Assembly (NCBI GenBank): GCA_030295235.1
Contig: AP026148.1
Coordinates: 496,001-560,000 of the forward strand
Reading direction: 5' to 3'
Source of the DNA: Fistulifera solaris
Taxonomy: Eukaryota
Length of the DNA: 64,000 nt
Each line of letters starts with the position of its first letter. The stretch's first letter is position 1. Of the stretch, positions 11,838 to 64,000 are shown piece by piece. The translations under genes and the position numbers were made by a program. Under the pieces are notes generated by a model. It saw only the letters and a program-made list of their open reading frames with translations. It ran no database searches and was not told where the DNA came from.

Positions 11838-12806
11838 AGTGCGACGTTGCACATTCTACAAACTATTCTTTGGTATAAATTATGCTAAAATGGTTAATCA
11901 TCTAATCTGGGTCAAACAATACAAACGGTGGGTGTGGAAACACTTTCAAATTTCATTTTCAATCGTTACTTCTCTCTCGAGGAGATGATAACAATGTCAT
12001 TCTGCGCCAGTGCGCGAAACTCGATATTGGATTCCACGTGGGGAGCGATTCACTCGGGTGTACATCATCCGATCAAATACACTTCTAGCAATCGCTCCCA
12101 TTACCGTCCTCATCCACCCAGTTTGCAATTAGCATCACCTAATTGACTCACGCCTCGAATATTTGCACCACCACGTCCCAAAGGTTTTCCATTTCCAGTC
12201 GACCGATACGATCGACCTTGATTCCGATTACCGTACGTTCGATTCTTCGTAGACGAAAACACGTGTTCGTATGCAACTATCAGAGAACGTCGCTAGATTT
12301 ATAAAAAAAAATGCGAGTTCGAAGCACTTACCGACGAGGACGAATGATTCTCAAGAGCTTGTGGGTTGAAAATTGTCGTGAAAAACAGTGCCACCAGCGT
12401 ATAAATACCTGCAAAACACTTGAGAGAAAGTAATAGACGGTCATTCGACACAAACGGCCTGCGAAACGTACCTCCGAGAAAGTCCGTGAACGACTTCCAC
12501 AGTGACTTTTGCCGCCTACCGTGCCGTCTGCGGAAACATACACCATACTATTATCTTTTCCAAAGAATAGAGAAGTTAAAGGGTAAAGGTACGAGTGTAA
12601 TGATGACATCGAAGAGTTGTATCTGGTAATATGCATGCCTGCAGGCGATAAAACACGACCGGACAATTCGTTACCGCTATGACGTGAAATCAGCGTCCGT
12701 CCATCCACCCACCGTTCCGAAGCAGCGCAGCAGCAGCAGCACTTTTACGCACAAAAACAACCCCCGTTGACCAAAATCTTTCTTGTTTCATCTATTTTGA
12801 TCCAAA

Positions 12807-13617
12807 ATGCGACTTTCTACCAAACGAGACTATCTTTCAAGCTCCCAGAACGATTTGGCGACAGATGATTGCAAGCGACAGCGCACGGAAAGCCCTATTC
12901 AGTCGTTGTTCGCTTCTCTTCGATCACCTTTCGACTGTCGAGATGATAACAATGATGATGTCCCCTTTCTCTCCGATTGCGATGCAGGTGTTGCGGAATC
13001 GCTCGTTCCTGGTGAATCGATTCCTGATAACGAGATGTCTTTCATTTTATCGTTTGCGGAATCGCGTGAAGAGATGCAGTCGTGGATTTACGAGAACGAG
13101 AACGCCGCTTGGGCACAGAGCACTGTTCAGGCGCTGCTTTCGTTGAATGTCACTTCGTCTCGTGGCTCTTCAAGCAGCTCTTTTCTTGAAAATCATCGTG
13201 CGTCTCGCCGTGTACAATTTGTGCCTGGTTTCTACACTGTCAAGGAGATTCCTCATCATAATTCATTGACCGCCGATGAAAAGCGCTTCGTTGTATCGTA
13301 ACAAGCGTACGTTGCAGGCAGAGAAGGATGAAATTTGCCTGGAGATCAGGTTTGAGCGTCGTTTACGTCTTTGCGGCGCCGCTGATGCGCTGGAAGAAGG
13401 GTGTTTCTTCCGCAACCATCTTGGAGAGTTGGTCCATCCAGCACACTGGCTCGTGTATGTGAATGAAATTCTTCCAAGTCTTCCCCTCGATACTCCCGTC
13501 GTTGGCTTTTCCTCACTGAACGAGTACAAACAAAGTGATGAGTTGTCCAAGTATGAGCAATACTTTGGCAACGCCATGCGGAAAAGAGTCTTCCATCCTC
13601 GATCCCTTGATTTGTAA
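12807..13617 (+). CDS. Orphan family A member A1 (about 269 aa; RRVQF motif), +1 frameshift near 13286
   Basis: ORFs 12807-13301 and 13276-13617 together align to the intact 61295-62065 copy. Shares RRVxF-x5-VKEIPHH, LEE and GELVHPAHW with A2 and A3. Confidence 0.8.
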
Positions 13618-14226
13618 GCGTTTTCTCGACTGGGCGTATTTTGTCTCGTTTTCCTGTATTGTGCTCCCCGTAGTGGCGATTTGAAACGATTCAACCGCTC
13701 TTGTTATATGTCAAGTGTTAAGTAGTGATTATTTTAGATGATTCTTTAAAAAATACTCCGTATTCAGTTTAATAGCTATGAACTGCCTCTCCTTAGTTTT
13801 CTTGGTAACGTTGTCTTTTGTTGTTGTGTATCGTACCGTATGGTATCGTATCGTATTGTATCGTCGTCTTTTGTTGCAGCTTGCAGCGCAAGGTGACTTT
13901 TCACACAGTGCGCGTTGTGCTTTCAAATCAATTCGTAATTATTAGAGATCTTTCGAAAAGAAATCAAGCTCTTCAAAGCTTTATTCCGTTTACTCTCGTC
14001 GAAACTCGTCCTCGCTCCTCGCTCTCGTTTCTTCATGAGTAAACGTTTGTGTACCAGCTCTACGTGAGAGCTGGTTACACGATTTTGTACCAGGGCAGTC
14101 GTAGAAAATTAGTCGTTCCGTCAGCCGTCAGTCAGTCCGCAGCAAGCCTTTTAATGTATTCACTCTCGCGCACAAAACAACCCCGTTTTACCAAATTCCT
14201 CATTGTTTCATCTATTTTGAATCAAA

Positions 14227-14994
14227 ATGCAAGTTTACAGCAAACAAAACCACCTTTCATGCTCCAAGAGTCCCTCGGAGACGATTTTCGACACGCTACA
14301 GCGACTGACAAGCCCTCTGTGGTCGTTGCAAGCCGAAAATGTTGACGATGTTCCCTGTCTCTCTGATTGCGACGCGGGTGCCGCGGAATCGTTGCTTCCA
14401 CGTGATTTCGATGTCGACAATGATGATGAAATCTCTTCTTTCCTTCTGTCCCTTACAGGATCGCGTGAAGAACCGCTGTTGACGGTGAACAAGACTCAAA
14501 AGGGAGTATTAAAGACAAGCACTAGTATTCTTCCGGTGACGATACACTCTTTGCTCAAGATTGCTCCATCCAGTCATCCTGCGCCTCGTCGTGTTCGATT
14601 TGCTTCGGATCTTACGACGGTGAAAGAGATTCCCCATCATTGTTCGTTCACAACCGAGCAAAAGCATTCGTTATATCGTGACCTCGAGACTTTGCAAGCC
14701 GAGAGTGATGTCATTTGTCAGGAGATTGAATTTGAATGCAGTCTGTATGGCGATGAATGCCTCGAGACTGTGTTGGAAGAAGACGCCTATTTCCGGAATC
14801 GTCGTGGCGAATTGGTTCATCCAGCCCACTGGAGTGCTTTCACGGATGAGATCGTTGACAGCCTGGACGTCGACCCAACATCCATACCCTCTGGTTTCTC
14901 GTCGGTAGAAGCTTACAAGAAGTATTTGTTCAAATACGAGCACTTCTATGATCATGTCCTTCCAAATCGTGCGTTTGTATCATCCGGTCGATGA
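14227..14994 (+). CDS. Orphan family A member A2 (255 aa; RRVRF motif)
   Basis: Intact ORF; near-identical paralog at 59935-60696; family motifs present. Confidence 0.85.
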   Translation: MQVYSKQNHLSCSKSPSETIFDTLQRLTSPLWSLQAENVDDVPCLSDCDAGAAESLLPRDFDVDNDDEISSFLLSLTGSREEPLLTVNKTQKGVLKTSTSILPVTIHSLLKIAPSSHPAPRRVRFASDLTTVKEIPHHCSFTTEQKHSLYRDLETLQAESDVICQEIEFECSLYGDECLETVLEEDAYFRNRRGELVHPAHWSAFTDEIVDSLDVDPTSIPSGFSSVEAYKKYLFKYEHFYDHVLPNRAFVSSGR

Positions 14995-15601
14995 AAGAGA
15001 AGTGTTGCTTTGTCGTTGCGTATATTATTACCAGTGTTCGTCGTTCTATGTGTTGTGATGATTTAATTGCTCTTTGTTAGATGTTATGAGAAATAATGAT
15101 GTAATCATAGATGATATTTTGTAAAGAGAGACTTCTTAGCTTGTCTAGTGTGTAGCTGTGCGTGGGCGACGTTGTCTTGAAAACGTAGGCGCACGCTCCT
15201 TATCTAAAAAGTACGTTGAGAACGACGGTAAATGCAAGCTTAAAATTCTTGGTATAACTTCGTGAGAGCAAGCTTAAAAGAGTTATAGCTACAAAGCAAC
15301 ATCTTATTGCAGCTTGTTTCTGTTTCCTATTATTTGCCTAGTAATAGAAGCTGATTGAACTCCGTATTACTGCCTATTTTCTGGTGTGAACATACCAGGT
15401 AGCGCTATTGTACCAGGTAAAGCGTAACCTGTGGCATTCGACTTGGTGTACAACATAATCTCTCAGTATCGTTACCACTAAGACATAGTCCACACTTTGC
15501 AGCCCGCAGCAGCAACGTACCTGGTATGCTTTATTATTCTCACACAAAAAAACACCCCATTTTACCGATATCTTTATTGTTTCATCAATTCTGCACCAAT
15601 C

Positions 15602-16374
15602 ATGAAAGTTTCTTGCCGTTTTAACTACCTTCGACGTCCCAAAAGTCATCAGAAGACAATGGAAAAGCGTCGACAAACGATTCGTCCTTTCCGCAAGCTG
15701 TTGGCTGCATTCCGTTCTCGCCACGACGCCGGAGATGATGTTGTATCGTTTGACCGTGAAGCTGCTGCTCCGGAAAGTGTCCCTCGCAATCCTTATCGTA
15801 TCATTATTTGGGATATTGATAATTCTCGTCCTCGTGGTGGGGAGCTGCTGTCCGAAGCACCGGAATATGACTATCTGGCAGCGGAAGATTGCCCTGGCGT
15901 TGCTGCGGTCCCCGGTCGACAAGCGTTGCGTTTCGCTTGTGATTACGACGCCGCTCTTGACGACTTTTTCAGTCCTCCCACTCGTCGTGTCACCTTCGCA
16001 CAGCATGTGACTGTTGTACCCATTCAAAGCCATCAGTCGTTGACGGAAGACGAGAAGCGTTTTTGTATGGCGTCAAGAGTACCAAGAAGGAGAAGAGCCT
16101 AAAGGAGCAGCAATATGAAGACAGCAAGCACTGCATTGAAAATGCACTAGAGGAAGAGATGTTCTATCCAAATCACGAGGGCAAGTTGGTCCATCCAGCC
16201 CATTTTCGTTCGTTTGTGCGTAAAATCCTTCCAACCCTTCCTCGCGACATCAAGGTACCGGTACCTGGTTTCTTGTCCTTTGAAGAATATTACGGCCTCC
16301 TGGAATGTTACGCGCGTAAGTACAATACATCCATTGCCGAAGAAATGATCCAAGATGATGCCTTCGAAGTGTGA
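15602..16374 (+). CDS. Orphan family A member A3 (about 257 aa; RRVTF motif), -1 frameshift near 16062
   Basis: Two ORFs join to match the intact 62682-63449 copy; GKLVHPAHF motif. Confidence 0.8.
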
Positions 16375-16790
16375 CAAGCTGAAGTCGTTGTGTTTGCTTG
16401 CTGTGTTGTGTTTTGTAATCAATCGTTATCATCGTATTTATTTGCGTTGTCGTTTTCATTGAGCTCCCTTGGGACATGGGAAATCATCCACAGCAGATCG
16501 AGCAATTAAGAATCGATTTAAAAATAATATAGTTTGTTCATGCGTTAAACAGTTTTAATACTTCGTACGATAAATGTTGTTTGTTGGCATTCTGATGAAC
16601 GGTCTACTCAGTTGACTACTCCCTATGTTTGTACTTCGGCAGTATTCGCACCTCTTAGCTGCAGACAATGCAGATGTCCATATCAAATGGCAACTTTGAT
16701 GGAACGTAACGCATCAACTAGACCTAGCTAGGGAGACGAAAGTTTGAATTATTTCGCATTGACGTATTTTCTTTGTTGTGCTCCGTAAGA

Positions 16791-16819
16791 ATCAATCAAT
16801 CAATCAATCTATCAATCAA
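16791..16819. repeat. (ATCA)n microsatellite
   Basis: atcaatcaatcaatcaatctatcaatcaa. Confidence 0.75.
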
Positions 16820-17231
16820 CTCTTTAGCAGACTGTACATCATAAACTCGGAGTGCTGGCAATGATGATTCTTCTTCTTGCACGAGTCTGTTCTACATCTC
16901 GCCATGCTTTTGCTTTAGAACGTGATCAATTTACTTGGTATGCACCTATCTGGTACCGGTACCGGTGACTCTTTTGGTGTAGCTCTATTCCGCTTTGCGC
17001 ATCGTCCAGGTTTCGGCTTTGCTGTAGATGTGAGCTTTTTCCTCTGGTATGCACCTACCAAAGTAGGGACGTTTGGGGATGATTTAACCGCTCTTTGTAT
17101 GAAGAGCTCTTCTCCGGTGGCATGGTTTGCTACTTGTCTAATGTGGAGCTTTTGTATCTGTATTACCGATGACATCTCGTGATCCGCTGTCGTGAAGCAC
17201 CAAATGCATTCAAAAACATGCGGTTGCGATC

Positions 17232-49027: not shown

Positions 49028-49406
49028 GCTACTATACAGGATAACGTATATGAAGATGGGTCAATTATTTGTGTTTGATGTCCTTTTCACGATATCAAAT
49101 TCATTTTTTCTATGTTCGATGCGATTTTTCTTCGGGTTGAGCCGACAAAGAAGATGCGGGTCGGCCATCTGTTGTTGCTGTTGCGGGACGGAACACCATC
49201 TGTACAAGGACAATCTAGTACCGGTAAGTCAGAAAGAGACTTTTGCTTACTCTAGCGGATAATGTACTGACGCTGCTTTGGTGGCGCTCTGCTCGAAAGC
49301 CACAACAAACGATTTCCTCATCGACCGCAACACCTTAACACAAAAGTCCTTGCTGTCCTCATTCCTCATTCTCCTCATTCTGCACGAACTGAACTTGGGA
49401 AAGAAA

Positions 49407-50851
49407 ATGACTTAAACGATCAAACGCCTTCGAGAGGAAGGGCATTCTCGCCTCAGCAACTTGGACGGCGTCGAAAGTCTTGACGTCTTCTGGGCGGAAG
49501 TCAACAAAGTTGAGCGTCTTTATATTGAAGATACGGGTGTTTACGTTGCACCCACAAAACCAAAACGTCCAAAGGAGAGTTTGTTGGCTTGACTTGTCGA
49601 CGCAATGGAGACTTTTTAACGAGTTTGGCATTTGTCGGAAATCTTGATGATGATATCGCCTTGCTGCGCTCTGTGGCAGTCCGAGTCCTTTGTCTTTCAG
49701 AAACAAACCCCCAAAGCATGGAACTACGAGGAAACATTACCTATTTAAGTAGACCCGGGGACAACTATGATCACTTGCTTTTAACGACAGAGCAATTGCG
49801 ACATATCATATGCGCCTTTCCATCGCGGCAATACACTTTCCGTTTTCTGTGCTTCACACCAAAACAATCTGTGGAACTGGTTTCGCATCGAAAGTTTGCC
49901 ATTGAAGTACACTCGTGTCAGTTCGAGGATAAAGGTCAAGCGATGGTAGATTGGCTCGAGAAGAGAGACGGGGCGGAAATTATCGATTCTTGCTATTTTC
50001 CTGACTGCGACTGCGTCGAAAAGATCCTCAAGTTTCTGAGCCGTTCCAGGTATCCCGTGTTTTATAAGCTTTACGTTCTTACCGGTGGAGCGCTTCTTAA
50101 ACCTGAACTATCTCAATTGATCTCGGCAGCAAACGTTAGAACGGTAATGGCGGATATTCGTTTCTTTGCTTGTTGCGATGGCTGGCGAGCACCCTTACTG
50201 AAAGCTCTCCGTGAGGGAACATTCCGACCACAAACTCTCGAAATATGTTTCAGCTCCAACTTTCGTCTTTTTGATGAAGGTGATATTCCTATTTTCGGTA
50301 AGGTCGTCCGCAAGTTGTTTAAAGCAATATCATCTCCCGACTGCACTTTGAAAGAACGTCATTTGAAACATTTCGAATGCACCGAAATCGCCCATGACTT
50401 TGAAAGGTACTTGCTGAGTATGCTGCAGACGAATGAAAGGCTTGAAGTACTGGGTGTTTATAGCACTGTTGCGTTGTTGGAATTTCCACAGATGAGAATT
50501 ATGGATGCCGCAACCAAACATCCGCGTCTTCGGAAAATGTGTTTCTATCCTCCGTCTTCTCATGACCCACCAGAAGTAGGATACGCCGAACCGTTTCAAA
50601 TATGGGCGCAGAAAAACCGTTGCCACATCATACAGTTCAACGACTTCACTCACTCCGATAAGAAACCCTATCTCTCCAAGTGGCAAAATGCAGTCTTTGC
50701 TGTCTTCACGTCCAAGTTCGACGCTCTCCAACAAGTGGAGGACGACAAAGCCCGTTCCTATTTACTGGCAACGGCTATTGCGACGTTCCAACACATGCCT
50801 GATCGGATCTACAACCTTTTGACCGGAAATCTCGATGTTTTTGCGAGTTAA
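49407..50851 (+). pseudogene. Orphan family B copy 1 (RNI/LRR-like), disrupted
   Basis: Aligns with the intact 53031-54473 gene, but codon 3 is TAA (49413-49415, TAT in paralogs) and there is a frameshift near 49590. Confidence 0.7.
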
Positions 50852-51329
50852 TTTAAGAGTCACTCGCTTTCGCTTTTTCGTCTCGTTGAATGTTAATTGC
50901 CAGCGCACCTAGTACGACTATGTCGCAGCGATTCAATAGCAATAATGCAGTGAAAGGTGTGTACCTTTAGCTAAAAATGAAACCCACTTGGCACCTGTAA
51001 CCGTGACTCTAATGTTGTGAGCCCGCGTATTATCTTTATTTTAGTCCCTTTTACTCGTGATTGCTGTGCTTAACGAAAAGAGCACTATCTGTAGATCGAC
51101 GCTTGAGTACCGGTACGTCGAGTCACGGTGCGTGCTTACGCAATTGTCATTGCTCTGCTTGGAAGCTGCAGCCGTGAGCGTGTGCAAACTACTACGTACT
51201 TTGTTTTGGTGCGAAGTGCGAACAAGAACAAAATCATTTTTCCCATCGACCGCAACACGGGAGCCAACGAAAGCTTTTGCTCTTCCAGTATCCTCATACT
51301 CTTCATTCTTTACATACGATAAAGTAAAG

Positions 51330-52804
51330 ATGCCTTATTCAATTAAGCGCCTTCGTGACGAAGGGCACTTCCGCTTGAGGAACTTGGACGGCGTCGAAAG
51401 TAGTGACGTCTTTTGGGCGGAAGCCATGAAGGTGAAGCGTCTTTATATCGAAGACACGGGTGTTTACGTCGCTCGTGCCAAAGACCGAATGCCAGGAGAA
51501 TATGTTGGCTTGAAATATCATCGTAACGGTGACTACTCAACGCGATTAGCATTCGTGGGTAAACCTGATGATATTACGTCGTTGCGATCCGTGACATTTC
51601 GTATCCTTTGTCTACCCGAAACAGATGATCCCCAAAGCATGCATCTCGCCAGAAACTCATACACCCCCGGAAGACCCGTGAACGAACGCGATCAGCTGAT
51701 TCTCACAGCTGCACAGTTGCGGTATGTCATTTGTGCCTATCCGTCGCGATGGTTTGGATTCAGTTATATGGCATTCAATGGGGACCAATCGGTGGAGCTT
51801 GTATCTCATCGCAAGTTTGAAATTGATCTTTTCAACTGTCGATTTCTTGATAAGGATTGAGAAATTGTCTAATGGCTGGAGAACAGAAACACAGCAGAGG
51901 TTTTTGATTACTTCGATTTTTACTTTGTGACTGTATCGAGGAAATCCTAACGTTCTTGAGCCGCTTCACGCACCCCGTGTTCAAGAAACTCTATGCAAAA
52001 GAAAGTGATGTACCTTGTTGACTATCTCCTTTGGTTGCTTTACAGCATTGGTAGTGAATATTCGCTTCTTCATTTATGACGAACATTGGAGAGCACCAAT
52101 CGTAGAGGCTATCCGCGATGGAACTTTTCGACCACAAAGCCTTGAAATAGATTTCAGATCCCCGCTAATTCGCGTCGATTTCGAACGAAAAGAATGTCAG
52201 GCTATCGGCAGATTTCTATCCAACTTGTTCAAAATCATGTCGTCTCCCCAGTGCTCGTTGAAAGAATTTCAATTGAATCATTTCAATGTGTACGGCATCA
52301 TGCAAAACTTCAAAAAGGACTTGGATTATATGCTGGAGAACAATCAAAGCCTTGTTGCACTGGGGAGTTTATAGTACTGCGCGTCCGCTGAAATTCCCAC
52401 ACATGAATTTCATCCTGCACGCTGCCGAGAACCATCCGCGTCTCCGGAAAATCTGTTTCTACCCCCCTACCGACGACCCACCCCAATTGGCGCAAATCGA
52501 TATCTATCAGATGTGATTGCATCGAAACCTCTCGCGCGACTTTCAGTTTAGAGACTTTGGTTACTCGGATCTGAAAGCACATCTCTCAACTTGGCAGATG
52601 ATAGTCTTCTCTGCGTTTACAAATTATTACGATTACCACGCTCTCCACCGGTTTCAGGACGAAAGCATCCGCTCTCATTTACTTGTGAAGGCACTTGCCA
52701 CGTCTCGTCATATGCCAGATCGGATCTATTATTTGCTTTCCAAAAATCAGGATCTTATTGCGAATAAAAGTCTTTATTTTCGTCCCTTTTACTTGTACTC
52801 ATGA
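51330..52804 (+). pseudogene. Orphan family B copy 2, disrupted
   Basis: Nonsense substitutions relative to copy 3 (GAA to TAA 51870-51872; TGG to TGA 52514-52516) plus several frameshifts. Confidence 0.8.
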
Positions 52805-53030
52805 TTGCTTTTGCCTAGAATAACAGTCGAGTACCGGTAAGACGTAAAAACGATGCAATGCGCTCTAAAAGAGATTGTACTTGGTACTGTACTTTCCTAC
52901 TACGTAGACTACAGTACCGGTACCTTACTTGTATGCTCGGAAAGCGGACGAAATCATTTTTCATCGACCGCAATACTGGTAAACACACGAAAGTCTTTGC
53001 TTTCCTCATTCTCTACAAACGAAAGTAAAG

Positions 53031-54473
53031 ATGACTTATTCAATTAAGCGCCTTCGAGAGGAAGGGCACTTCCGCTTGAGGAATATGGATGGCGTCGACA
53101 GTCTCGACGTCTTTTGGGCGGAAGCCCTGAAGGTGAAGCGTCTTTATATCGAAGACACGGGTGTTTACGTTGCACCCAGAAACACCAAAAAATCCGAAGG
53201 AGAATTTGCTGGGTTGAAGTGTCACCACAACGAGGACTATTCCACGGAACTACAATTTGTTGGAAAACCCGATGATATTCCGTCTTTGCGATTCGTGACA
53301 TTCCGTGTCCTTTGTCTGCCCGAGACAGATAACCTTAAAACCATGAGTTTCTCTAAGAACTCATACGCTCCGGGGAGACCCCTGAACGAGCGTGATCAGC
53401 TGATTCTCACGCCTGTGCAGATGCGCCACATCATTTGTGCTTATCCGTCGCGAACATTCAAGTTCAGTTATCTGTCATTCAATGGTGACCAATCGGTGGA
53501 GCTTGTATCTCATCGGAAGTTTCAAATCGAGCTTTTCGACTGTCGATTCCTTGATAAGGGCCGCGAAATCGTTGAATGGCTGGAAAACAGAAACATGGTA
53601 GAAATTTTCGATTATTTCGATTTCTACTATTGTGACTGCTTCGAGAAAATCCTGACCTTCTTGAGTCGCTCCACGCACCCCGTGTTCAAAAGGCTGTATG
53701 CGAACGAAGTTGATGTACCTTCTCGACTATCTCACTTGGTCGCTGGAGCAAATGTTACAGCATTGATAGTGAATATACGTTTCTTCATTTATGATGAGGG
53801 TTGGAGAGCACCAATCTTACAGGCCATCTGTGATGGAACATTTCGTCCACAAAGCCTCGAAATTCAATTCAGATGTGCTCCGATTCACGGGGATTACAGC
53901 CGAGAGGAACGTCAGGCAATCGGCAGATTTCTGTCCAAATTGTTCAAAATAATGTCTTTTGGCAACTGCTCGTTGAAAGAATTGCACCTTCATGACTTCA
54001 ATGTGAGAGGCATCATGCAGGACTTCAAAGCGGACTTGGCTGACATGCTGCAGGACAATCGAAGCCTTCACGTGTTAGGAATTTATAGCACTGCACGTCC
54101 GTTGAAACTTCCACAGATAACTATCCTGCACGCTGCTGCGAAACATCCCCGTCTTCGGAAAATTTGTTTCTACCCCCCTATGAACGACGCACCGCGATCT
54201 GTGGATATTGATTTTATCCAGTTTTGGTTAAAGGAAAATCTCTCGCGCAACATTCAGTTCAAGGACTTTGGCTACTCGGACCTGAGAGCCCATCTCCCAA
54301 TTTGGCAGAAGATAGTCTTGTCTGCGTTTACAGAAGATTTCGACGCTCTCAGGCAGGTTGAGAACGAAAGGTTCCGCTCTCATTTACTTGTTATGGCACT
54401 TGCCACGTTTCGTCATATGCCGGATCGAATCTATTATTTGCTTACCGGGAATCAGGATCTTATTGCGAAGTAG
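53031..54473 (+). CDS. Orphan family B copy 3, intact 480-aa RNI/LRR-like protein
   Basis: Uninterrupted ORF; CSLKELHL, NRSLHVLGI and HPRLRKICF resemble degenerate RNI-type repeats; three tandem paralogs. Confidence 0.82.
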   Translation: MTYSIKRLREEGHFRLRNMDGVDSLDVFWAEALKVKRLYIEDTGVYVAPRNTKKSEGEFAGLKCHHNEDYSTELQFVGKPDDIPSLRFVTFRVLCLPETDNLKTMSFSKNSYAPGRPLNERDQLILTPVQMRHIICAYPSRTFKFSYLSFNGDQSVELVSHRKFQIELFDCRFLDKGREIVEWLENRNMVEIFDYFDFYYCDCFEKILTFLSRSTHPVFKRLYANEVDVPSRLSHLVAGANVTALIVNIRFFIYDEGWRAPILQAICDGTFRPQSLEIQFRCAPIHGDYSREERQAIGRFLSKLFKIMSFGNCSLKELHLHDFNVRGIMQDFKADLADMLQDNRSLHVLGIYSTARPLKLPQITILHAAAKHPRLRKICFYPPMNDAPRSVDIDFIQFWLKENLSRNIQFKDFGYSDLRAHLPIWQKIVLSAFTEDFDALRQVENERFRSHLLVMALATFRHMPDRIYYLLTGNQDLIAK

Positions 54474-54919
54474 CACTGAAAAGGAGCAATTATAGCTCTG
54501 CTCGAACAGAAGTAAAGAGGGATATTGTACACCAACAAGGCCTTTATAATTAGCTCGAGTATATTCGTGTTGTGAATTAGATTCTCGTCTTTTCTTTTAA
54601 AAACGGTCAAGCCAATAGTATGTCAAGCCGACCTACTCTAGCTACATGATCAACTCGGCCCCCTTACCTCTTCAAAGACTCTAGACGACACCAATTTGAG
54701 CTCTAAAGACTATACCTGGTAGGACTACTAAATACCACTTGACTCTAGAGAGAAAATCGAAAATTGGTCTCTTTTCTCGTAAATACCATTTACCGTTGCG
54801 ACAGATGCATGTACCGGGTAAAAAGGCAAGGAATAATAAAATGCAAAACCGCTCATTATTTATTTTCATTGCTTCGCTTGAGTCGTCCAATTTAGTTAGT
54901 GCAATCGACTTACTGAAAA

Positions 54920-56353
54920 ATGAATTATTCTATCAAAAGACTCCGAGAGGAAGGGGCACTTCTGTTTGCGTAGCCTGGATAGCGTCGAAAGACTCGACAT
55001 TTTTTGGACGGAAGCGAACAAAGTCGAGCGCCTTTAAATCGAGGATACGGGTGTATATGTTGCACCTTCTAACAAAACATCTCAAGAGGACTTTGTCGTT
55101 TTGAAATGTCATCGCGACGGTGACTACTCAACGCAAATAGCATTCGTGGGTAAACCTGATGATATTGCGTCATTGCGATCCGTAACATATCGTATTCTTT
55201 AGCTTCCCGAGGCAAATAGGCCCCAAAGCTTAACATTTTCAGGAAGCTCATACAGACCTGGTAGACTTATAGGGACACGTGATAACATACTAATCACAGC
55301 TGAACAATTGCGGCATATTTTACGCGCCTATCCGTCGCGGTGGTTCAAGTTCAATGGTTTATCGTTCAATGCCGAGCAATCTGTTGAGATTGTCTCTCAT
55401 CGAAAGTTCAAAATTGAATCCTTCGACTGTCGATTTGATGACAAAGGTCGTGCGATTGTGGCTTGGTTGGAAAACAGAAACGAAACAGACATAATGGAAT
55501 TTTGTGATCTTTTCCGTTGCGATTGTTATCTGGCAATGCTCAGGTTCTTGAGCCGTTCAATGTACCCCGTTTTCAAAAGGCTCTATTTGGACTCAATTGA
55601 CATACCTTCTCAACTAACTCCCTATGTTGCTGCAGCAAATGTTAAGTCTTTAATTGTGGATATTCGGTTTTTGTCTGTGACAAAGGTTGGAGGACACCAC
55701 TACTGCAAGCGCTTCGAGATGGAACATTTCGTCCAGAGATTCTCGACATCAGTTTCATTTGCGCGCCATGTCACGGAAAAATGAATAAGAAGGAAATTGT
55801 TATTGTGGTGGGTCAATTCTTACAAAAATTGCTTGCAGCTTTATCCTCACGAGAGTGCTCTTTGAAAGAATTGCACTTGTGGGATTTTTAATTTAAGAGG
55901 CATCGGACAAGAATTCAAAGATGATTTGATTGTCATGCTCCAAAAAAATAAAAGCCTTCGATCGCTCGGTGTTTATAGCACCATAGGTCTGTTTCGTTTT
56001 CCACAAATGAGCATTCTGAAGGTAGCAGCCATGCATCCACATCTTCGGCAACTCTGTTTCTATCCCCCGACTTCTGATCCACCCGAATCCAGGCCTTTCC
56101 AAATATGGGCGAGGAAAAATCGTTTTCATGATATCCAATTCGAAACCGCACGCGACCCAGAGATGAGGTTCAACGCGATAAGTGGCAGAGTGCTGTCTTT
56201 TCTATTTTCACGGGGGAGTATGCGGCTCTCAAGAAAGTCCAAGACCAGAATGCCCGATCTTATTTGCTCGTAACAGCTCTTGCTGCATGTCGCCAGATGC
56301 CTAAACGAATCTATTACTTGTTGTCCGACAATCAGGATGTTTTTGCGAAGTAA
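54920..56353 (+). pseudogene. Orphan family B copy 4, heavily disrupted
   Basis: Homologous from ATG 54920 to TAA 56351-56353; TGT to TAG at 55200-55202 and many indels. Confidence 0.8.
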
Positions 56354-56434: not shown

Positions 56435-57712
56435 TTATGTCGCAATCGACGACTCTGTTAGCTCTCTCAGTTTCTCCTCCTGATCTTTCGCAATCATGGC
56501 ACTAATCATGCCATCGATATCACCGCTCAAAAATTGTTGTAGGGGAAAGTTTTGTCCGAGTCGATGATCACTACAGCGGGAGTCTTTCCAGTTGTAGGTA
56601 CGGATCTTCTCACTACGACTACCCGTCCCTACCTGTGAACCGCGCCTTGCTCGCTCTTCTATCTCTCTTTTTCGTTTTCTAAGTCGTACAATTTCGACAT
56701 GAGCATCTTCATAGCCAATTCTTTGTTCTTGAGCTGCGAGCGCTCTTGAGTGCACTTAATTCGAATACCTTTGATTTACAAAAAAAGTCAGGCACGAGTA
56801 ACAATTAGCAGAGCAACAATCGGATCATCGATCAATACAATACACACCTGTTGGTTTGTGGAGCAAGTCAACTGCTGTCTCGACCTTGTTCACATTTTGT
56901 CCTCCAGCACCACCGGAGCGCATGGTCGACATTTCAATGTCTTTGGGATCAATTTTGACATCGACTTCATCGCATTCCGGCATGATGGCTACGGTGGCAG
57001 TGGAAGTGTGAACACGTCCCTGTGATTCGGTGGCCGGGACTCGTTGCACCCGATGCACACCGGCTTCCCATTTCAATTTGGAGTAGACGCGATCGCCCTT
57101 AATGTCGAGGACCGCGTTTTTGTAGCCCCCATCATCACCAGGAGCCGCATCGATCAAGGTACTCTGCCACCCCTGTGACGTAATATATTTGCGATACACA
57201 TCTAACAAGTCACCGGCAAAAATATTGGCCTCAGAACCTCCCGTTCCGGCACGAATTTCGAGCAACACATTGCGATCGTCGTTGGGGTCACGAGGCAGCA
57301 ACAAAACTTTGATTCTCTTCTCCAATTCCTCCATTTTCGGTTCAATTTCTTTCATTTCCTCCCGAGCCATTTCTTTCATGTCCGGATCGGCCAACAATTC
57401 TTTGGCGCCAGCGTAATCTTCCCCCAGAGACTTGTATTCTTCGTAGGCTGCTACCACATCTTCCGACTGTGCCCGATCACTCATTACTTGTCGTAATAAG
57501 GAGGAATCGGCAATGACGTCCGGATCACCCAATCGCTCTGTCAATGCTTGATACGAACGGCGAATATTCTCTAACCTGTCCATCATGGAATCATCCAGGA
57601 CCATTTTTAAGGTCGACGACGACCGAACAAGAATCGAGGGAGGACCATTGTTTGAAAGGTGAACGAACGCCGCCGTTTGCCAGGCAGCGGAAGCGAAAAG
57701 TAGCAATTTCAT
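56435..57712 (-). CDS. prfA: Plastid peptide chain release factor 1, 2 exons; apparent homopolymer indel near 56670
   Basis: [23 protein letters not shown] (PxT), [10 protein letters not shown] and RSEKIRTYN; intron 56769-56847; leader ending TAA-FVH. Confidence 0.95.
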
Positions 57713-58129: not shown

Positions 58130-59628
58130 ATGCCTTTGGACGAATATGAAGACCGTGGCTATTTACTAGAAGTCATTCCGCCGTGCCTTTGTAATGCCGA
58201 GCAAGTGCCACGTTGGAACCACGGAAGAATTTCTCCCGTGTACCGGCTCAAAACGAAAACCTATCAATTTTCGAGAACTCAATCGATACGGGTACGGGAT
58301 TGCTATCTGGCGGGAGAATGGGACTTTGTCTTATATCACGCCGTGTGATAGTAACGATTTTCCGTTGCACGATCTCCGTCGCCTGACAATCAGTTACAAC
58401 GGCAATCATCCTATCCTGAACATTGTCGGTAGAAACAACGAAGTGGTAGCATAAACAGACGAATTCTTCATGAAATTGGAAACACCGATGAGTGACAGTT
58501 CTTCTGTCGTAATTGATAATACTCACTTTTACGGGTACGACTTTCGCCATGCTGGAGTTTCCTGTTTCCGGCATATGTTTGAAACTTGCCCGTCACGTGC
58601 GGTGTACTTTCGGAACATGACGGTTGTTCTAGCGACTCGCGCAAGACAGTTAAATTTGAGCGATTGTTCCTTTGAAGACGTCGGTAATTCGTTCATCAAC
58701 GCTCTTGCGGGCCGTACTTCTTCCGTGGAATTGCTAACGTTTGAGGGCGAAAACGCACCAGAGGAGGAGAATGTGCGACTTTTGCTACGAAGTGGAAACG
58801 TGCAGAAGTTGACTCTACCGCAGTTGGATGGAGATATCGTAATGCTTCCTTTTTCTGCCAAAGTGGATTGTCTCGACTATGAAATAAGGTCGTCGTCAAT
58901 ACTGGATGGCGATGTTCAATCATTGAATATTGTGGCTAACAAACTCGCTTTCACAATATTTGAGGAGGGCGACGCTTTCCCAGTTGAAGCTACGCTGGCT
59001 TTTCTCCGGCGCTTGGTGACTTTAGGCCACTTTATAGAGTTGAAAGTCCGCTTCACTTTTGACGACGACGAAATGGAAGTAGAGATACCAGATTGCATGG
59101 TACAAGAAGTGATTTGCACCGCAATAGCCAACCCCAAATTACAAGTTTTAGATTTGACGCTTTTGAATTGGAAACAGCATGCAGAAACACTTTTGCAAGG
59201 CCTCGAAGTCCATAAAGGACTGCGTATTTTGAAGTTCAATGTGGACGAAGACGCTTTCGGTTCCAATTACGCCCTCCTTCGACAGTTCCTATCGGACAAC
59301 AGAAACGTAACAGTGATGAATGAAGACGATGAAATATATACAGATGAAGCAGATATCAATCAACTCTATTCACTCAACCGCATTTACCTGGGCTCGGCAG
59401 ATCTCGTAGTAATACCACTTAGAGAGATCATCGTTGATAGCGACCGCCTTGAGAAAAACGGCTTTAAGTGATTTCCGGCATTCCTCTCTTTTCCTCCCTG
59501 ATCACGCGGATGCACTGTATGATCTCCTTCATCACGTCAGTGTCGAGGTAGAGGAACATAATAAGAATGATCCACTCAGCGCGATGCTCCGAAGCGAAAT
59601 CAACTTTACAGCTTCAGTTCCTGGCTGA
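58130..59628 (+). pseudogene. Orphan RNI/LRR-like diatom-family gene, probably disrupted
   Basis: ORFs 58130, 58194, 58470 and 59434 chain on one strand; in-frame TAA at 58452-58454; ANPKLQVLDL, HKGLRILKF and DNRNVTV are RNI-like segments. Confidence 0.6.
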
Positions 59629-59639
59629 TTGATAGACGA
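59592..59639 (+). repeat. Left copy of a flank duplicated at 63953-64000
   Basis: 48 of 48 nt identical (aagcgaaatc...gatagacga); the right copy runs off the window end. Confidence 0.92.
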
Positions 59640-59934
59640 GCAGAAAGAAGCTGCATTTCAGTGCTTTGCGGCTATAAATGTCTCAAAGCTTGCATTTACC
59701 GTCGTCCTCAACGTACTTTTTAGATAAGGAGCGTGCGCCTACGTTTTCAAGACAACGTCGCCCACGCACAGCTACACACTAGACAAGCTAAGAAGTCTCT
59801 CTTTACAAAATATCATCTACGATTACATCATTATTTCTCATAACATCTAAAAAAGAGCAATTGAATCATCACAACACATAGAACGACGAACACTAGAGTA
59901 ATACTATATGCAACAACAAAGCAACGCTTCTCTT

Positions 59935-60696
59935 TCATCGACCGGATGATACAAACGCACGATTTGGAAGGACATGATCATAGAAACGCTCGTATTTGAA
60001 CAAATACTTCTTGTAAGCTTCTACCGACGAGAAACCAGGTGGTATGGATGTCGGGTCGACGTCAAGGCTGTCAACGATCTCATCCGTGAAAGCACTCCAG
60101 TGGGCTGGATGAACCAATTCGCCACAACGATTCCAAAAATAGGCGTCTTCTTCCAACACAGTCTCGAGGCATTCATCGCCATACAGACTGCGTTCAAATT
60201 CAATCTCCTGACAAATGACATCGCACTCCGCTTGCAAGGTCTCGAGGTCACGATATAACGAACGCTTTTGCTCGGCTGTAAACAAACAATGATGGGGAAT
60301 CTCTTTCACCGTCGTAAGATCCGAAGCAAATCGAACACGACGAGGCACAGGATGACTGGATGGAGCAATCTTGAGCGAAGAGTGTAACGTCACCGAAGGA
60401 GTGCTCGTCTTTAATACTCCCTTTTGAGTCTTGTTCACCGTCAACAGCGGTTCTTCACGCAATACGGTAAGGGACAGAAGGAAAGAAGAGATTTCATCAT
60501 CATTGTCGACATCGAAATCACGTGGAAGCAACGATTCCGCGACACCCGCGTCGCAATCAGAGAGACAGGGAACATCGTCAACATTTTCGGCTTGCAACGA
60601 CCACAGAGGGCTTGTCAGTCGCTGTAGCGTGTCGAAAATCGTCTCTGAGGGACTCTTGGAGCATGAAAGGTGGTTTTGTTTGCTGTAAACTTGCAT
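59935..60696 (-). CDS. Orphan family A member A2' (253 aa)
   Basis: Intact ORF nearly identical to 14227-14994, with one in-frame 6-bp indel. Confidence 0.85.
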   Translation of the reverse strand: MQVYSKQNHLSCSKSPSETIFDTLQRLTSPLWSLQAENVDDVPCLSDCDAGVAESLLPRDFDVDNDDEISSFLLSLTVLREEPLLTVNKTQKGVLKTSTPSVTLHSSLKIAPSSHPVPRRVRFASDLTTVKEIPHHCLFTAEQKRSLYRDLETLQAECDVICQEIEFERSLYGDECLETVLEEDAYFWNRCGELVHPAHWSAFTDEIVDSLDVDPTSIPPGFSSVEAYKKYLFKYERFYDHVLPNRAFVSSGR

Positions 60697-61294
60697 TTTG
60701 ATTCAAAATAGATGAAACAATGAGGAATTTGGTAAAACGGGGTTGTTTTGTGCGCTAGAGTGAATACAGTAAAAGGCTTGCTGCGGACTGATCGACGGCT
60801 GACGGACCGACTAATTTTCTACGACTGCCCTGGTACAAAATCGTGTAAGTAGCTCTCACGTAGAGCTTGTAGACTAACGTTTACTCACGAAGAAACGAGA
60901 GCGAGGAGCGAGGACGGATTAAAGCTTTGAAGAGCCTGATTTCTTTTGAAAGATCTCTGATAATTACGAAGTGATTTGAAAGCACAACGCGTATTGTGTG
61001 AAAAGTCACCTTGCGCTGCAAGCTTCAACAAAAGACGACGATACAATACGATACAATACGGTACGATACACAACAACAAAGACGACGTTACCAAAAAAAA
61101 CCAAGGGGAGGCAGTTCATAGCTATAAAACTGAATACGGAGTATTTTTTTTAAGAATCATCTACAATAATCACTACTTAACACTTGACATATAACAAGAG
61201 CGGTTGAATCATTTCAAATCGCCACTACGGGGAGCACAATACAGGGAAAACGAGACAAAATACGCAGTCGAGAAAACGCTTACGAATCAAGGGA

Positions 61295-62065
61295 TCAAGG
61301 ATGGAAGACTCTTTTCCGCATGGCGTTGTCAAAGTATTGCTCATACTTGGACAACTCATCACTTTGCTTGTACTCGTTCAGTGAGGAAAAGCCAACGACG
61401 GGAGTATCGAGGGGAAGACTTGGAAGAATTTCATTCACATACACGAGCCAGTGTGCTGGATGGACTAACTCTCCAAGATGGTTGCGGAAGAAACACCCTT
61501 CTTCCAGCGCATCAGCGGCGCCGCAAAGACGTAAACGACGCTCAAACCTGATCTCCAGGCAGATCTCATCCTTCTCTGCCTGCAACGCACGCTTGTCGCG
61601 ATACAACGAACGCTTTTCCTCGGCCGTCAACGAATTATGATGGGGAATCTCCTTGACAGTGTAGAAACCGGGCACAAATTGTACACGGCGAGACGCACGA
61701 TGATTTTCAAGAAAAGAACTGCTTGAAGAGCCACGAGACGAAGTGACATTCAACGAAAGCAGCGCCTGAACAGTGCTCTGTGCCCACGCGGCGTTCTCGT
61801 TCTCGCAAATCCACGACTGCATCTCTTCACGCGATTCCGCAAACGAAAGAATGAACGACATCTCGTTATCAGGAATCAATTCACAAGGAACGGAATCGGA
61901 GAGGAAGGGGACATCATCATCATTGTCGTCTCGAAAGTCGACAGGTGATCGAAGAGAAGCGAACAACGACTGAACAGGGCCTTCCGTGCGCTGCCGCTTG
62001 CAATCACTTGTCACCAAGTCGCTCTGGGAGCATGAAAGATAGTCTCGTTTGGTAGAAAGTCGCAT
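61295..62065 (-). CDS. Orphan family A member A1' (256 aa)
   Basis: Intact ORF; differs from A1 by an in-frame 24-bp deletion and a CGA to TGA change that trims 5 C-terminal residues. Confidence 0.85.
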   Translation of the reverse strand: MRLSTKRDYLSCSQSDLVTSDCKRQRTEGPVQSLFASLRSPVDFRDDNDDDVPFLSDSVPCELIPDNEMSFILSFAESREEMQSWICENENAAWAQSTVQALLSLNVTSSRGSSSSSFLENHRASRRVQFVPGFYTVKEIPHHNSLTAEEKRSLYRDKRALQAEKDEICLEIRFERRLRLCGAADALEEGCFFRNHLGELVHPAHWLVYVNEILPSLPLDTPVVGFSSLNEYKQSDELSKYEQYFDNAMRKRVFHP

Positions 62066-62681
62066 TTTGATTCAAAATAGATGAAACAACAAGGATTTTG
62101 GTAATTGGGGTTGTTTTTGTGCGCTTTGCTGCTGCGCTGCTGCGGACCGATGGGCGGATGGACGGACGTATACGTGTACCACTAAGATATTGTAGTGGGA
62201 TGCACGTCATTTGTTGGGTAGCGCTCCGATTTATTATGTACACTGTCTTGCAGAGTTAGTTAGTTAAAAGGAAGAAAAAAATACGCCGCACCGCAAATAA
62301 TAATACACTCCCCAGCTAGACTAGGTCTAGACTAGTTGATGGGTACCTGTTAACGTTCCATTAAGAATGTCAATCTTGATATCGACATTTGCATTGTCAG
62401 CAGCTTCGAAGTGCGAATGAATAGTTTCTAGCTTCTAAGGTAGTTTGTAGTCGAATGAATAGTCCGTTCACCGGAATGCCACTTGACCAATCCTATAGAG
62501 TAAACGCAATGAATATACTATAGACTAATATTTTCAAAACAATTTCTAATTACTTGATATGATGTGGATGAAATTTAATGTCTTAAATGGATCGCAATGA
62601 AAACGACAACGCAAATAACTACGACGATAACGATTGATTACAAAACACAACGCAGAGAGCAAACACAACGACTCCAGCTCG

Positions 62682-63449
62682 TCACACTTCAACAGGATCA
62701 TCTTGGATCAGTTCTTCGGCAATGGATGTATTGTATTTACGCGCATAAAATTCCAGGACGCCGTAATATTCTTCAAAGGACACGAAACCAGGTACCTTCA
62801 TGTCGCGAGGAAGGGTTGGAAGGATTTCACGCACAAACGAACGAAAATGGGCTGGATGGACCAACTTGCCCTCGTGATTTGGATAGAACATCTCTTCCTC
62901 TAGTGCATTTTCAATGCAGTGCTTGCTGTCTTCATACTGCTGCTCCTTTAGGCTCTTCTCCTTCTTGGTACTCTTGACGCCATACAAGGAACGCTTCTCG
63001 TCTTCCGTCAACGACTGATGGCTTTGAATGGGTACAACAGTCACATGCTGTGCGAAAGTGACACGACGAGTGGGAGGACTGAAAAAGTCGTCAAGAGCGG
63101 CGTCATAATCACAAGCGAAACACAACGCTTGTCGACCGGGGACCGCAGCAACGCCAGGGCAACCTTCCGCTGCCAGATAGTCATATTCCGGTGCTTCGGA
63201 CAGCAGCTCCTCACCACAAGGACGAGAATTATCAATATCCCAGACAATGATACGATTAGGATTGCGAGGGACACTTTCCGGAGCAGCAGCTTCACGGTCA
63301 AACGCTACGACATCATCTCCGGCGTCGTGGCGAGAACGGAATGCAGCCAACAGCTTGCGGAAAGGACGAATCGTTTGTCGACGCTTTTCCATTGTCTTCT
63401 GATGACTTTTGTTACGTCGAAGGTAGTTAAAACGGCAAGAAACTTTCAT
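62682..63449 (-). CDS. Orphan family A member A3' (255 aa)
   Basis: Intact ORF; differs from A3 by an in-frame 6-bp indel (KVPGF vs KVPVPGF). Confidence 0.85.
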   Translation of the reverse strand: MKVSCRFNYLRRNKSHQKTMEKRRQTIRPFRKLLAAFRSRHDAGDDVVAFDREAAAPESVPRNPNRIIVWDIDNSRPCGEELLSEAPEYDYLAAEGCPGVAAVPGRQALCFACDYDAALDDFFSPPTRRVTFAQHVTVVPIQSHQSLTEDEKRSLYGVKSTKKEKSLKEQQYEDSKHCIENALEEEMFYPNHEGKLVHPAHFRSFVREILPTLPRDMKVPGFVSFEEYYGVLEFYARKYNTSIAEELIQDDPVEV

Positions 63450-63952
63450 GTTTAGTTCAGAATTGATAAATCAATAAAGATATCGGTAAAATGGGGTGTT
63501 TTTTTTTTTGTGTGATTGAGAATAATAAGCATACGTTGCTGCTGCGGGCTGCGGAGTGTGGACTATGTCTTAGCGGTAACGATACTGAGAGATTATGTAT
63601 ACCAAGTCGAATGCAACAGGTTACGCTTTACCTGGTACAATAGCGCTACCTGGTATGTTCACACCAGAAAATAGGCAGTAATACGGAGTTCAATCAGCTT
63701 CTATTACTAGGCAAATAATAGGAAACAGAAACAAGCTGCAATAAGATGTCGCTTTGTAGCTATAACTGTTTTTAAGCTTGCTCTCACCAAGTTATACCAA
63801 GAATTTTTAAGCTTGCATTACCGTCGTTCTCAACGTACTTTTTAGATAAGGAGCGTGCGCCTACGTTTTCAAGACAACGTCGCCCACGCACAGCTACACA
63901 CTAGACAAGCTAAGAAGTCTCTCTTTACAAAATATCATCTACGATTACATCA

Positions 63953-64000
63953 AAGCGAAATCAACTTTACAGCTTCAGTTCCTGGCTGATTGATAGACGA
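63953..64000 (+). repeat. Right copy of the 59592-59639 flank
   Basis: Begins exactly where cassette homology stops (gattacatca|aagcgaaatc). Confidence 0.92.

Follow-up and report, generated by a model that had tools for sequence, protein, structure and literature searches.

How did a three-gene unit come to stand in one gene order at one place on a diatom scaffold and in a circularly permuted order, on the opposite strand, 45 kb away? The question arose from a stretch of 64,000 nucleotides (nts) of Fistulifera solaris (contig AP026148.1, positions 496,001 to 560,000); "the window" below is this whole stretch, and coordinates are counted from its first letter. The window lies on a 755,706-bp scaffold that protein matches assign to F. 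solaris, an allopolyploid diatom. The original prediction, made from the letters alone, took the permuted gene order as the hallmark of a circular DNA intermediate. The permutation stood up to analysis, but the hallmark did not, because an array read in another phase gives the same order; a circular intermediate is not needed for the pattern. Most likely, the "circularly permuted" copy (copy 2) is the leading unit of a head-to-tail cluster that continues past the window end.

The unit measures about 4.1 kb and carries three paralogous genes, A1, A2, and A3, of about 255 codons each. The window holds two copies of it, laid out as follows (dN/dS, the ratio of nonsynonymous to synonymous divergence, is given for copy 1 versus copy 2):

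12694 to about 16857, plus strand: copy 1, in the order A1-A2-A3; a single unit that spans about 99% of an array period between unrelated flanks
12807..13617, plus strand: copy-1 A1, deposited as FisN_9Lu170; reading frame disrupted at 13286/13287 by 1 additional nt
14227..14994, plus strand: copy-1 A2; intact, 255 amino acids, in the protein collection as P0001
15602..16374, plus strand: copy-1 A3, deposited as FisN_9Lu168; frame broken near 16061, with 1 nt missing in a T run
59686..63952, minus strand: copy 2, in the order A3-A1-A2
59935..60696, minus strand: copy-2 A2; intact, 253 amino acids, 93% identical to copy-1 A2, dN/dS of 0.43
61295..62065, minus strand: copy-2 A1; intact, 256 amino acids, dN/dS of 0.16-0.29
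62682..63449, minus strand: copy-2 A3; intact, 255 amino acids, dN/dS of 0.39-0.69
62169..62352, no strand assigned: the A3-to-A1 head-to-tail joint of copy 2, where the A3 3' flank meets the A1 5' region

Homology between the copies was mapped by blastn, with positions 59000-64000 as the query against the window. Positions 59686-62168 matched copy-1 positions 15241-12694 (92.5% identity over 2553 columns), and positions 62353-63952 matched copy-1 positions 16707-15097 (89.7% over 1635 columns). On the minus strand, copy 2 follows copy 1 from 15097 to 16707, passes the joint, and then runs from 12694 to 15241, with the stretch from 15097 to 15241 common to both segments. The blastn matches and the open reading frames (ORFs) together confirmed the predicted order of A1-A2-A3 in copy 1 and of A3-A1-A2, on the opposite strand, in copy 2. 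The extent of the homology had been drawn too short. In a more sensitive alignment, the second block continued to about 16857 in copy 1 and about 62220 in copy 2 (score 25, against a maximum of 18 in shuffled sequence; 0 of 200 shuffles reached it). Within the joint, positions 62220-62352 are a diverged homologue of copy-1 positions 16708-16857, and the piece of about 51 nts at 62169-62219 is the sole part without a copy-1 counterpart. An 8-mer, ATGACGTG, that this 51-nt piece has in common with the left flank of copy 1 was considered and set aside as not significant (score 9, reached by 197 of 200 shuffles). Neither flank of copy 1 holds a remnant of a neighboring unit (scores of 10 and 12, reached by 172 and 134 of 200 shuffles, respectively). 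A single unit, when compared with an array entered in another phase, appears circularly permuted.

In both broken genes of copy 1, the frame break (13286 and 16061) comes immediately behind the same conserved 'EKR' codons. Neither break interrupts the deposited proteins 9Lu170 and 9Lu168, which match at 100% on both sides. The breaks are either errors of the pyrosequencing assembly or real pseudogene lesions.

The ends of copy 2 comprise the following parts, to which no strand is assigned:

59592..59685: F; 17 nts without cassette homology, then a diverged copy of the A2-A3 spacer at 59609-59681
59686..59830: R; first occurrence of a 145-bp piece of the A2-A3 spacer, beginning with AAGCTTGC
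63694..63808: the spacer source of F; 63694-63770 is homologous to F, followed by 35 nts between the AAGCTTGC sites at 63774 and 63809
63809..63952: R'; the 145-bp spacer piece once again
63953..64000: F'; identical to 59592-59639

As had been predicted, copy 2 begins and ends in the same A2-A3 spacer, and the repetition of the 145-bp piece is far beyond chance: R and R' (59686-59830 and 63809-63952) align over 145 columns with 1 mismatch and 1 gap (98.6% identity; blastn E value of 1.6e-67). Among R, R', and copy 1, the pairwise differences amount to only 2 changes. The restart of the sequence from 59592 after the end of copy 2 was likewise borne out, with 48 of 48 nts identical between 59592-59639 and 63953-64000 (blastn E value of 1e-18, likewise far beyond chance); there is no microhomology at the 63952/63953 breakpoint.

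The 94 nts from 59592 to 59685, however, had been taken for host DNA, and from 59609 on they are diverged cassette spacer. Positions 59609-59681 are about 70% identical to copy-2 positions 63694-63770, and likewise to copy 1, and align in register with R (score 24; the shuffle maximum was 18 to 18.5, and 0 of 300 shuffles reached the score). The 35 nts that the normal spacer has between its two AAGCTTGC 8-mers are absent from F-R, and it is at this 8-mer that identity steps from about 70% in F to 98-99% in R. Farther out, the left flank together with the first 17 nts of F (59400-59608) has no homology to the cassette spacer (257 of 300 shuffles reached its score). Copy 2 is consequently not bounded by unrelated host sequence at both ends, its left flank F being diverged cassette spacer. 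Since F lies in register with R, the position 59685/59686 is not an insertion end, and cassette-derived sequence stood here before the present, 98-99% identical R. F is what an old, partly homogenized array edge looks like, and it is unlike an insertion target.

To estimate copy number we used the contigs of sequencing run X1, which we took as genomic DNA of the same strain on the grounds that its contigs total 51.6 Mb, that the longest is 24,327 nts, and that depth is even over genic and intergenic flank. The run is thus probably genomic, and it is possibly the assembly's own data. The pieces reported were 20 of 248, and the loose ends 13 of 22. The error-free contigs among them were these:

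58400..59076: unique flank, word depth of 16.4
59060..59725: unique flank into R, word depth of 16.0
59707..59995: copy 2, word depth of 65.3
60362..60613: copy 2, word depth of 73.2
60697..61054: copy 2, word depth of 74.3
62094..62813: copy 2 across the joint, with 0 other letters, word depth of 58.3
62905..63118: copy 2, word depth of 59.4

Depth in the five listed copy-2 contigs is 3.6-4.6 times that in the unique flank. One of them, 62094-62813, bridges the whole A3-to-A1 joint, which copy 1 lacks, so a head-to-tail joint is present in continuous sequence. Copy-2-type sequence, head-to-tail joint included, is present at about 3.6-4.6 per unique flank, and the expectation that the cassette is amplified was upheld. 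In all, 234 X1 contigs matched the 5.6 kb at 88% likeness or more (77 at 99% or more, 86 at 95-99%, 59 at 90-95%, and 12 below 90%), and there are accordingly many variants of the unit in this genome. Runs X2, X4, and X5 gave only short gene-internal pieces.

The X1 contigs showed some further peculiarities of the unit. At 60646 and 61367, all of the X1 depth (73.3 of 73.3 and 131.9 of 131.9) shows a letter other than that of the window; these mismatches are either base errors of the scaffold or the mark of contigs that come from other copies only. A variant contig over 62905-63118 has 15 differences in 214 nts and a depth of 85.5, versus 59.4 for the exact copy-2 contig, and hence represents a third A3 sequence type in the genome that is commoner than the type in the window. 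A contig with a depth of 16.4 links 61846 back to 61196 (back 651); the link matches 9Hu125, a protein of 436 amino acids from the homeologous scaffold that consists of A1 followed by a second, partial A1, and it is a 651-bp internal tandem duplication (61196-61846) on the other subgenome. The A1-A2 spacer holds a decamer repeat at 61038-61069 (unit ACGATACAAT, 3.2 copies), and this piece is all that contigs of X2, a freshwater metagenome run, match.

Further genes of the family lie on the same scaffold outside the window. 9Lu139 is identical to copy-2 A3 at 235 of 236 amino acids and 9Lu127 at 232 of 236; 9Lu112 is of A2 type, with a best match of 87%. None of the three is encoded in the window. 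Because 9Lu170 and 9Lu168 are copy-1 A1 and A3 (100% identity), locus numbers fall along the plus strand, which would place 9Lu139, 9Lu127, and 9Lu112 to the right of copy 1 and past 64000; from their names, then, the three are probably located there. A rough count gave 28 ORFs of at least 120 amino acids between the two copies, and 18 protein accessions lie between 9Lu168 and 9Lu139; together these put 9Lu139 close to the window end. The numbers 139 and 127 differ by 12, or four times three genes. The homeologous scaffold carries at least two A1-type loci, 9Hu098 and 9Hu125.

The divergence between copy 1 and copy 2 is not even. In windows of 150 columns, identity ranged from 63% in the A3 3' flank to 99% in parts of the non-coding A2-A3 spacer, with an index of dispersion of 11.1. 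The longest identical runs, of 134 and 124 nts, are both in non-coding spacer; 2000 uniform scatterings gave runs of 120 nts at most. Divergence should be even after a single recent copying event, and the mosaic is better explained by old paralogues with gene conversion. The signs of homogenization at this locus are thus the step from about 70% (F) to 98-99% (R) and the mosaic itself. The cassette origin of F, the raised depth and further genes of copy-2 type, and the mosaic divergence all speak against the predicted single insertion, in which slightly more than one unit would have gone in and up to 94 bp of target would have been duplicated.

Synonymous divergence (dS) between the copies is 0.04-0.16 and dN/dS is 0.16-0.69, from which it follows that the A genes are under some constraint. 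In a tree of 31 rows, A1, A2, and A3 each formed a well-supported clade of its own that also held relatives from other sources (for the tree, 9Hu125 was split in two, the shifted tail of 9Lu112 was trimmed, and XX was set at the copy-1 A3 break). In the A1 clade, the tree left the branching order of copy 1, copy 2, and the homeologous 9Hu098 unresolved, as a polytomy. An 18,398-bp contig of a relative encodes both an A3-type and an A1-type protein. A metagenome scan with the family alignment gave 216 pattern matches, of which 1 locus (L001) was confirmed; the relatives' contigs of 18,398 bp and 30,667 bp carry closer homologues than this one. L001, on a 6710-bp contig, is a lone family member (454-1269, 40% identical) with other ORFs beside it and no three-gene unit.

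We consider it fairly probable that a tandem cluster has its edge at locus 2 and that copy 1 is a dispersed, inverted single unit. On this account, locus 2, from 59592 to the window end and beyond, would be the proximal edge of a head-to-tail cluster of units of about 4.1 kb, each made of three old paralogous genes (A2, A1, and A3, on the minus strand) of an uncharacterized diatom family. Tandem duplication, unequal crossing-over, and gene conversion would have built the cluster and kept its units alike, the last two being the presumed mechanism. R', the supposed 145-bp "terminal redundancy," would be the start of the next unit, and F the outermost, degenerate copy of the spacer, at the edge of the array. 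F' would reflect at least one tandem duplication of the 4361-bp segment 59592-63952, if the 63952/63953 junction is real. Copy 1 would be a lone, dispersed unit of this family, in inverted orientation at a distance of 45 kb. The window itself contains 1.03 units plus F', and further copies probably follow directly after 64000.

Concerted evolution by unequal crossing-over and gene conversion is well known in tandem multigene families. The likeness to the present locus lies in near-identical inner units, a diverged edge copy, mosaic dispersed copies, and identical non-coding tracts; concerted evolution does not predict the exact one-period length of copy 1, and otherwise there is no essential difference.

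Several observations weigh against a tandem cluster. Copy 1 is almost exactly one period long, a length not expected from plain segmental duplication; it would equally be explained if the unit was first duplicated in tandem and then dispersed. The placement of the further genes past 64000 assumes that locus numbers are positional, as suggested by three genes only, and the number of 9Lu112 does not fall in step with a strict three-gene period. The protein collection contains no A1 or A2 of copy-2 type and none of the three copy-2 ORFs; because these are missing, extra units cannot be counted from the annotation. Run X1 is labeled "RNA? (a guess)," and its summed depth, up to 184-429 in gene bins, is, as the tool warns, not a copy number. 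F is not amplified: contig 59060-59725 passes 59592 and the F/R junction unbroken at a depth of 16.0, and we estimate that its mean would be about 24 with four copies of F and about 18.6 with two. This depth excludes a regular 4361-bp array with four units or more and is compatible with about one extra F, or one extra 4361-bp segment, at most; of the tandem array of 4361 bp that had been proposed as the alternative to a target duplication, one extra copy is what may be left. Finally, none of the 20 of 248 X1 pieces listed bridges 63952/63953 or passes 64000, and the parts of 63859-64000 that have no listed piece of their own are uninformative.

The permuted order would also arise if locus 2 had taken up a one-unit circle from copy 1 in multimeric or rolling-circle form, or, in reverse, if recombination between units had released from the locus-2 array a circle that then opened at random and reintegrated 45 kb away, inverted, as copy 1. 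Copy 1 amounts to about 99% of one 4123-bp period, with 62169-62219 as the only piece without a counterpart and with flanks free of neighboring units; the copy-2 joint brings the two ends of copy 1 together; and no mobility gene would be required. Permuted order has been taken as evidence of circular intermediates in yeast, where tandem integration followed by regeneration of the circle through homologous recombination was proposed in passages of the report (PMC3053389). The same pattern, however, also results when the unit is duplicated in tandem and one copy is dispersed, and there is one permuted site here versus eight forms in yeast. The cassette origin of F leaves no duplicated target, mosaic divergence of 63-99% misfits one recent copying event (dS between the copies is given above), and no circle was observed. 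We think a circle unlikely in either direction.

A second rival holds that part of the structure is an assembly artefact, with the order R' to F' produced by a wrong join or by a near-identical repeat that was collapsed or looped in the pyrosequencing assembly. The first F. solaris assembly was made by pyrosequencing, and passages of the authors' later report state that it left repeat regions unresolved (bioRxiv 10.1101/2021.11.10.468027). In keeping with such an origin, X1 contigs pass 59592 and 59830 without branching while no listed piece bridges 63952/63953, the depth in bin 63823-64000 is only 14, all X1 depth disagrees with the window letter at 60646 and 61367, and the copy-1 frame breaks are read through in the deposited proteins. 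Against it, 59685/59686 and the whole A3-to-A1 joint each lie in an error-free contig, so the permutation itself is real, and a collapsed repeat alone does not put F after R'. The missing bridge is weak evidence, in that the contigs drop rare links and pieces with several placements are placed once; the R'/F' junction may be a single-copy link dropped by the contig builder or a wrong join. An artefact of this kind has, in our estimate, a low probability.

Searches for mobility features gave nothing in favor of transposition. The statement that no transposase, reverse transcriptase, or terminal inverted repeat is present was correct as far as we looked: no Pfam family of transposase, Rep/helicase, or reverse transcriptase was found in the 9 copy-2 ORFs (3 genes and 6 antisense), and 59400-64000 contains no terminal inverted or long terminal repeats, its longest inverted repeat being 16 nts and internal. 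There is no short fixed target duplication, and inspection of the unit boundaries, by eye only and with no formal test, showed nothing suggestive of Helitron-like ends. A nonautonomous transposable element, Helitron-like or other, with three captured genes is very improbable: the unit is indeed multicopy and dispersed on the scaffold (170-168, copy 2, 139, 127, and 112), but, besides lacking those domains, repeats, and target duplication, its three genes are old paralogues under purifying selection that relatives also carry, and L001, the most remote relative examined, has a single family member beside other ORFs.

What the A proteins do is suggested by few signs. The three A genes matched no Pfam family, and 12 family members searched against Pfam up to an E value of 10 gave nothing but one DUF3574 match at 0.049. 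No solved structure matched the family significantly (best E value, 0.59), and the AlphaFold model of an A protein was poor (mean pLDDT of 50.5, pTM of 0.24). The nearest atlas clusters are unnamed diatom clusters. Conserved in the family are 'LT.EEKR.LY', 'GELVHPAHW', and an R-V-x-F pattern; in copy-2 A2 numbering, V121 and F123 are invariant and R120 is nearly so among the 12 family members. R-V-x-F could be read as a PP1 docking motif. The nearest named atlas cluster, at 0.86, is PP1-binding (PF10488 PP1c_bdg), which is a lead only. Membership of the A proteins in PF10488 was rejected, as there was no significant Pfam profile match. Together, the motif and the cluster may offer a possible lead to the function of the A proteins.

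The neighbors of both copies are ordinary genes. Copy 1 lies beside a short-chain dehydrogenase (SDR) and an EamA transporter, and to the left of copy 2 are a peptide-chain release factor (56825-57712) and a 333-amino-acid ORF without a family. Scans of the whole window for tRNAs and for Rfam families gave 0 matches. A second tandem family occupies 49398-56349, with four head-to-tail units of about 1.7-1.9 kb that are 62-92% identical (families D1-D7); the long ORFs left in it, 53031-54473 (480 amino acids) and 49589-50851 (420 amino acids), both lack a Pfam family.

Close parallels are known from the same strain. According to passages of the report on its nanopore resequencing, the strain is an allopolyploid with two subgenomes, and the new data brought out tandem gene arrays that were not seen in the pyrosequencing assembly, such as LPAAT, five times on chromosome 9_h, and pairs of EAR genes (bioRxiv 10.1101/2021.11.10.468027). 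As at the present locus, these are near-identical head-to-tail units that the pyrosequencing assembly did not display, and one of the arrays is specific to one subgenome (same source). The present locus is not among the arrays named in those passages. Unlike the LPAAT and EAR arrays, it has a unit of three paralogues, an inverted single unit 45 kb away, and an edge whose degenerate spacer copy is itself repeated (F and F').

Region B of wine yeasts is a 17-kb segment of Zygosaccharomyces bailii that was amplified via an extrachromosomal circle, as passages of the report describe (PMC3053389). There too, gene order is permuted between copies, no mobility gene is present, and there is little or no homology at the breakpoints; unlike here, region B was found in eight forms, with different sites and opening points, and an autonomously replicating sequence (ARS) was tested (PMC3053389). 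Our locus offers a single permuted site, probably with further copies beside it, and its "flank" is cassette derived.

The cattle KIT gene in color sidedness is reportedly a case of serial translocation via circular intermediates, in which the duplicate is permuted because the circle opened elsewhere. That case is said to concern a large interchromosomal segment with both fusion points demonstrated experimentally, whereas here a simple array suffices.

We conclude that the structure is real and that its explanation is most likely an ordinary one, namely, a tandemly amplified gene cluster plus a dispersed copy and not a new kind of mobile cassette. It carries a caution for similar cases: any array edge or window boundary yields a permuted duplicate with a short repeat at its ends, which alone is no evidence of a circle. 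The finding matters mainly for annotation, as three intact copy-2 ORFs are missing from the protein collection and the pyrosequencing scaffold may misstate the true number and order of units. Should a circle after all have been involved, this would be the first documented gene movement mediated by extrachromosomal circular DNA (eccDNA) in a diatom, and a diatom gene cassette would be spreading via eccDNA without any mobility gene. As the evidence stands, what the locus records for F. solaris is the amplification, on chromosome 9 of the L subgenome, of a three-gene unit from an uncharacterized and apparently diatom-restricted family.

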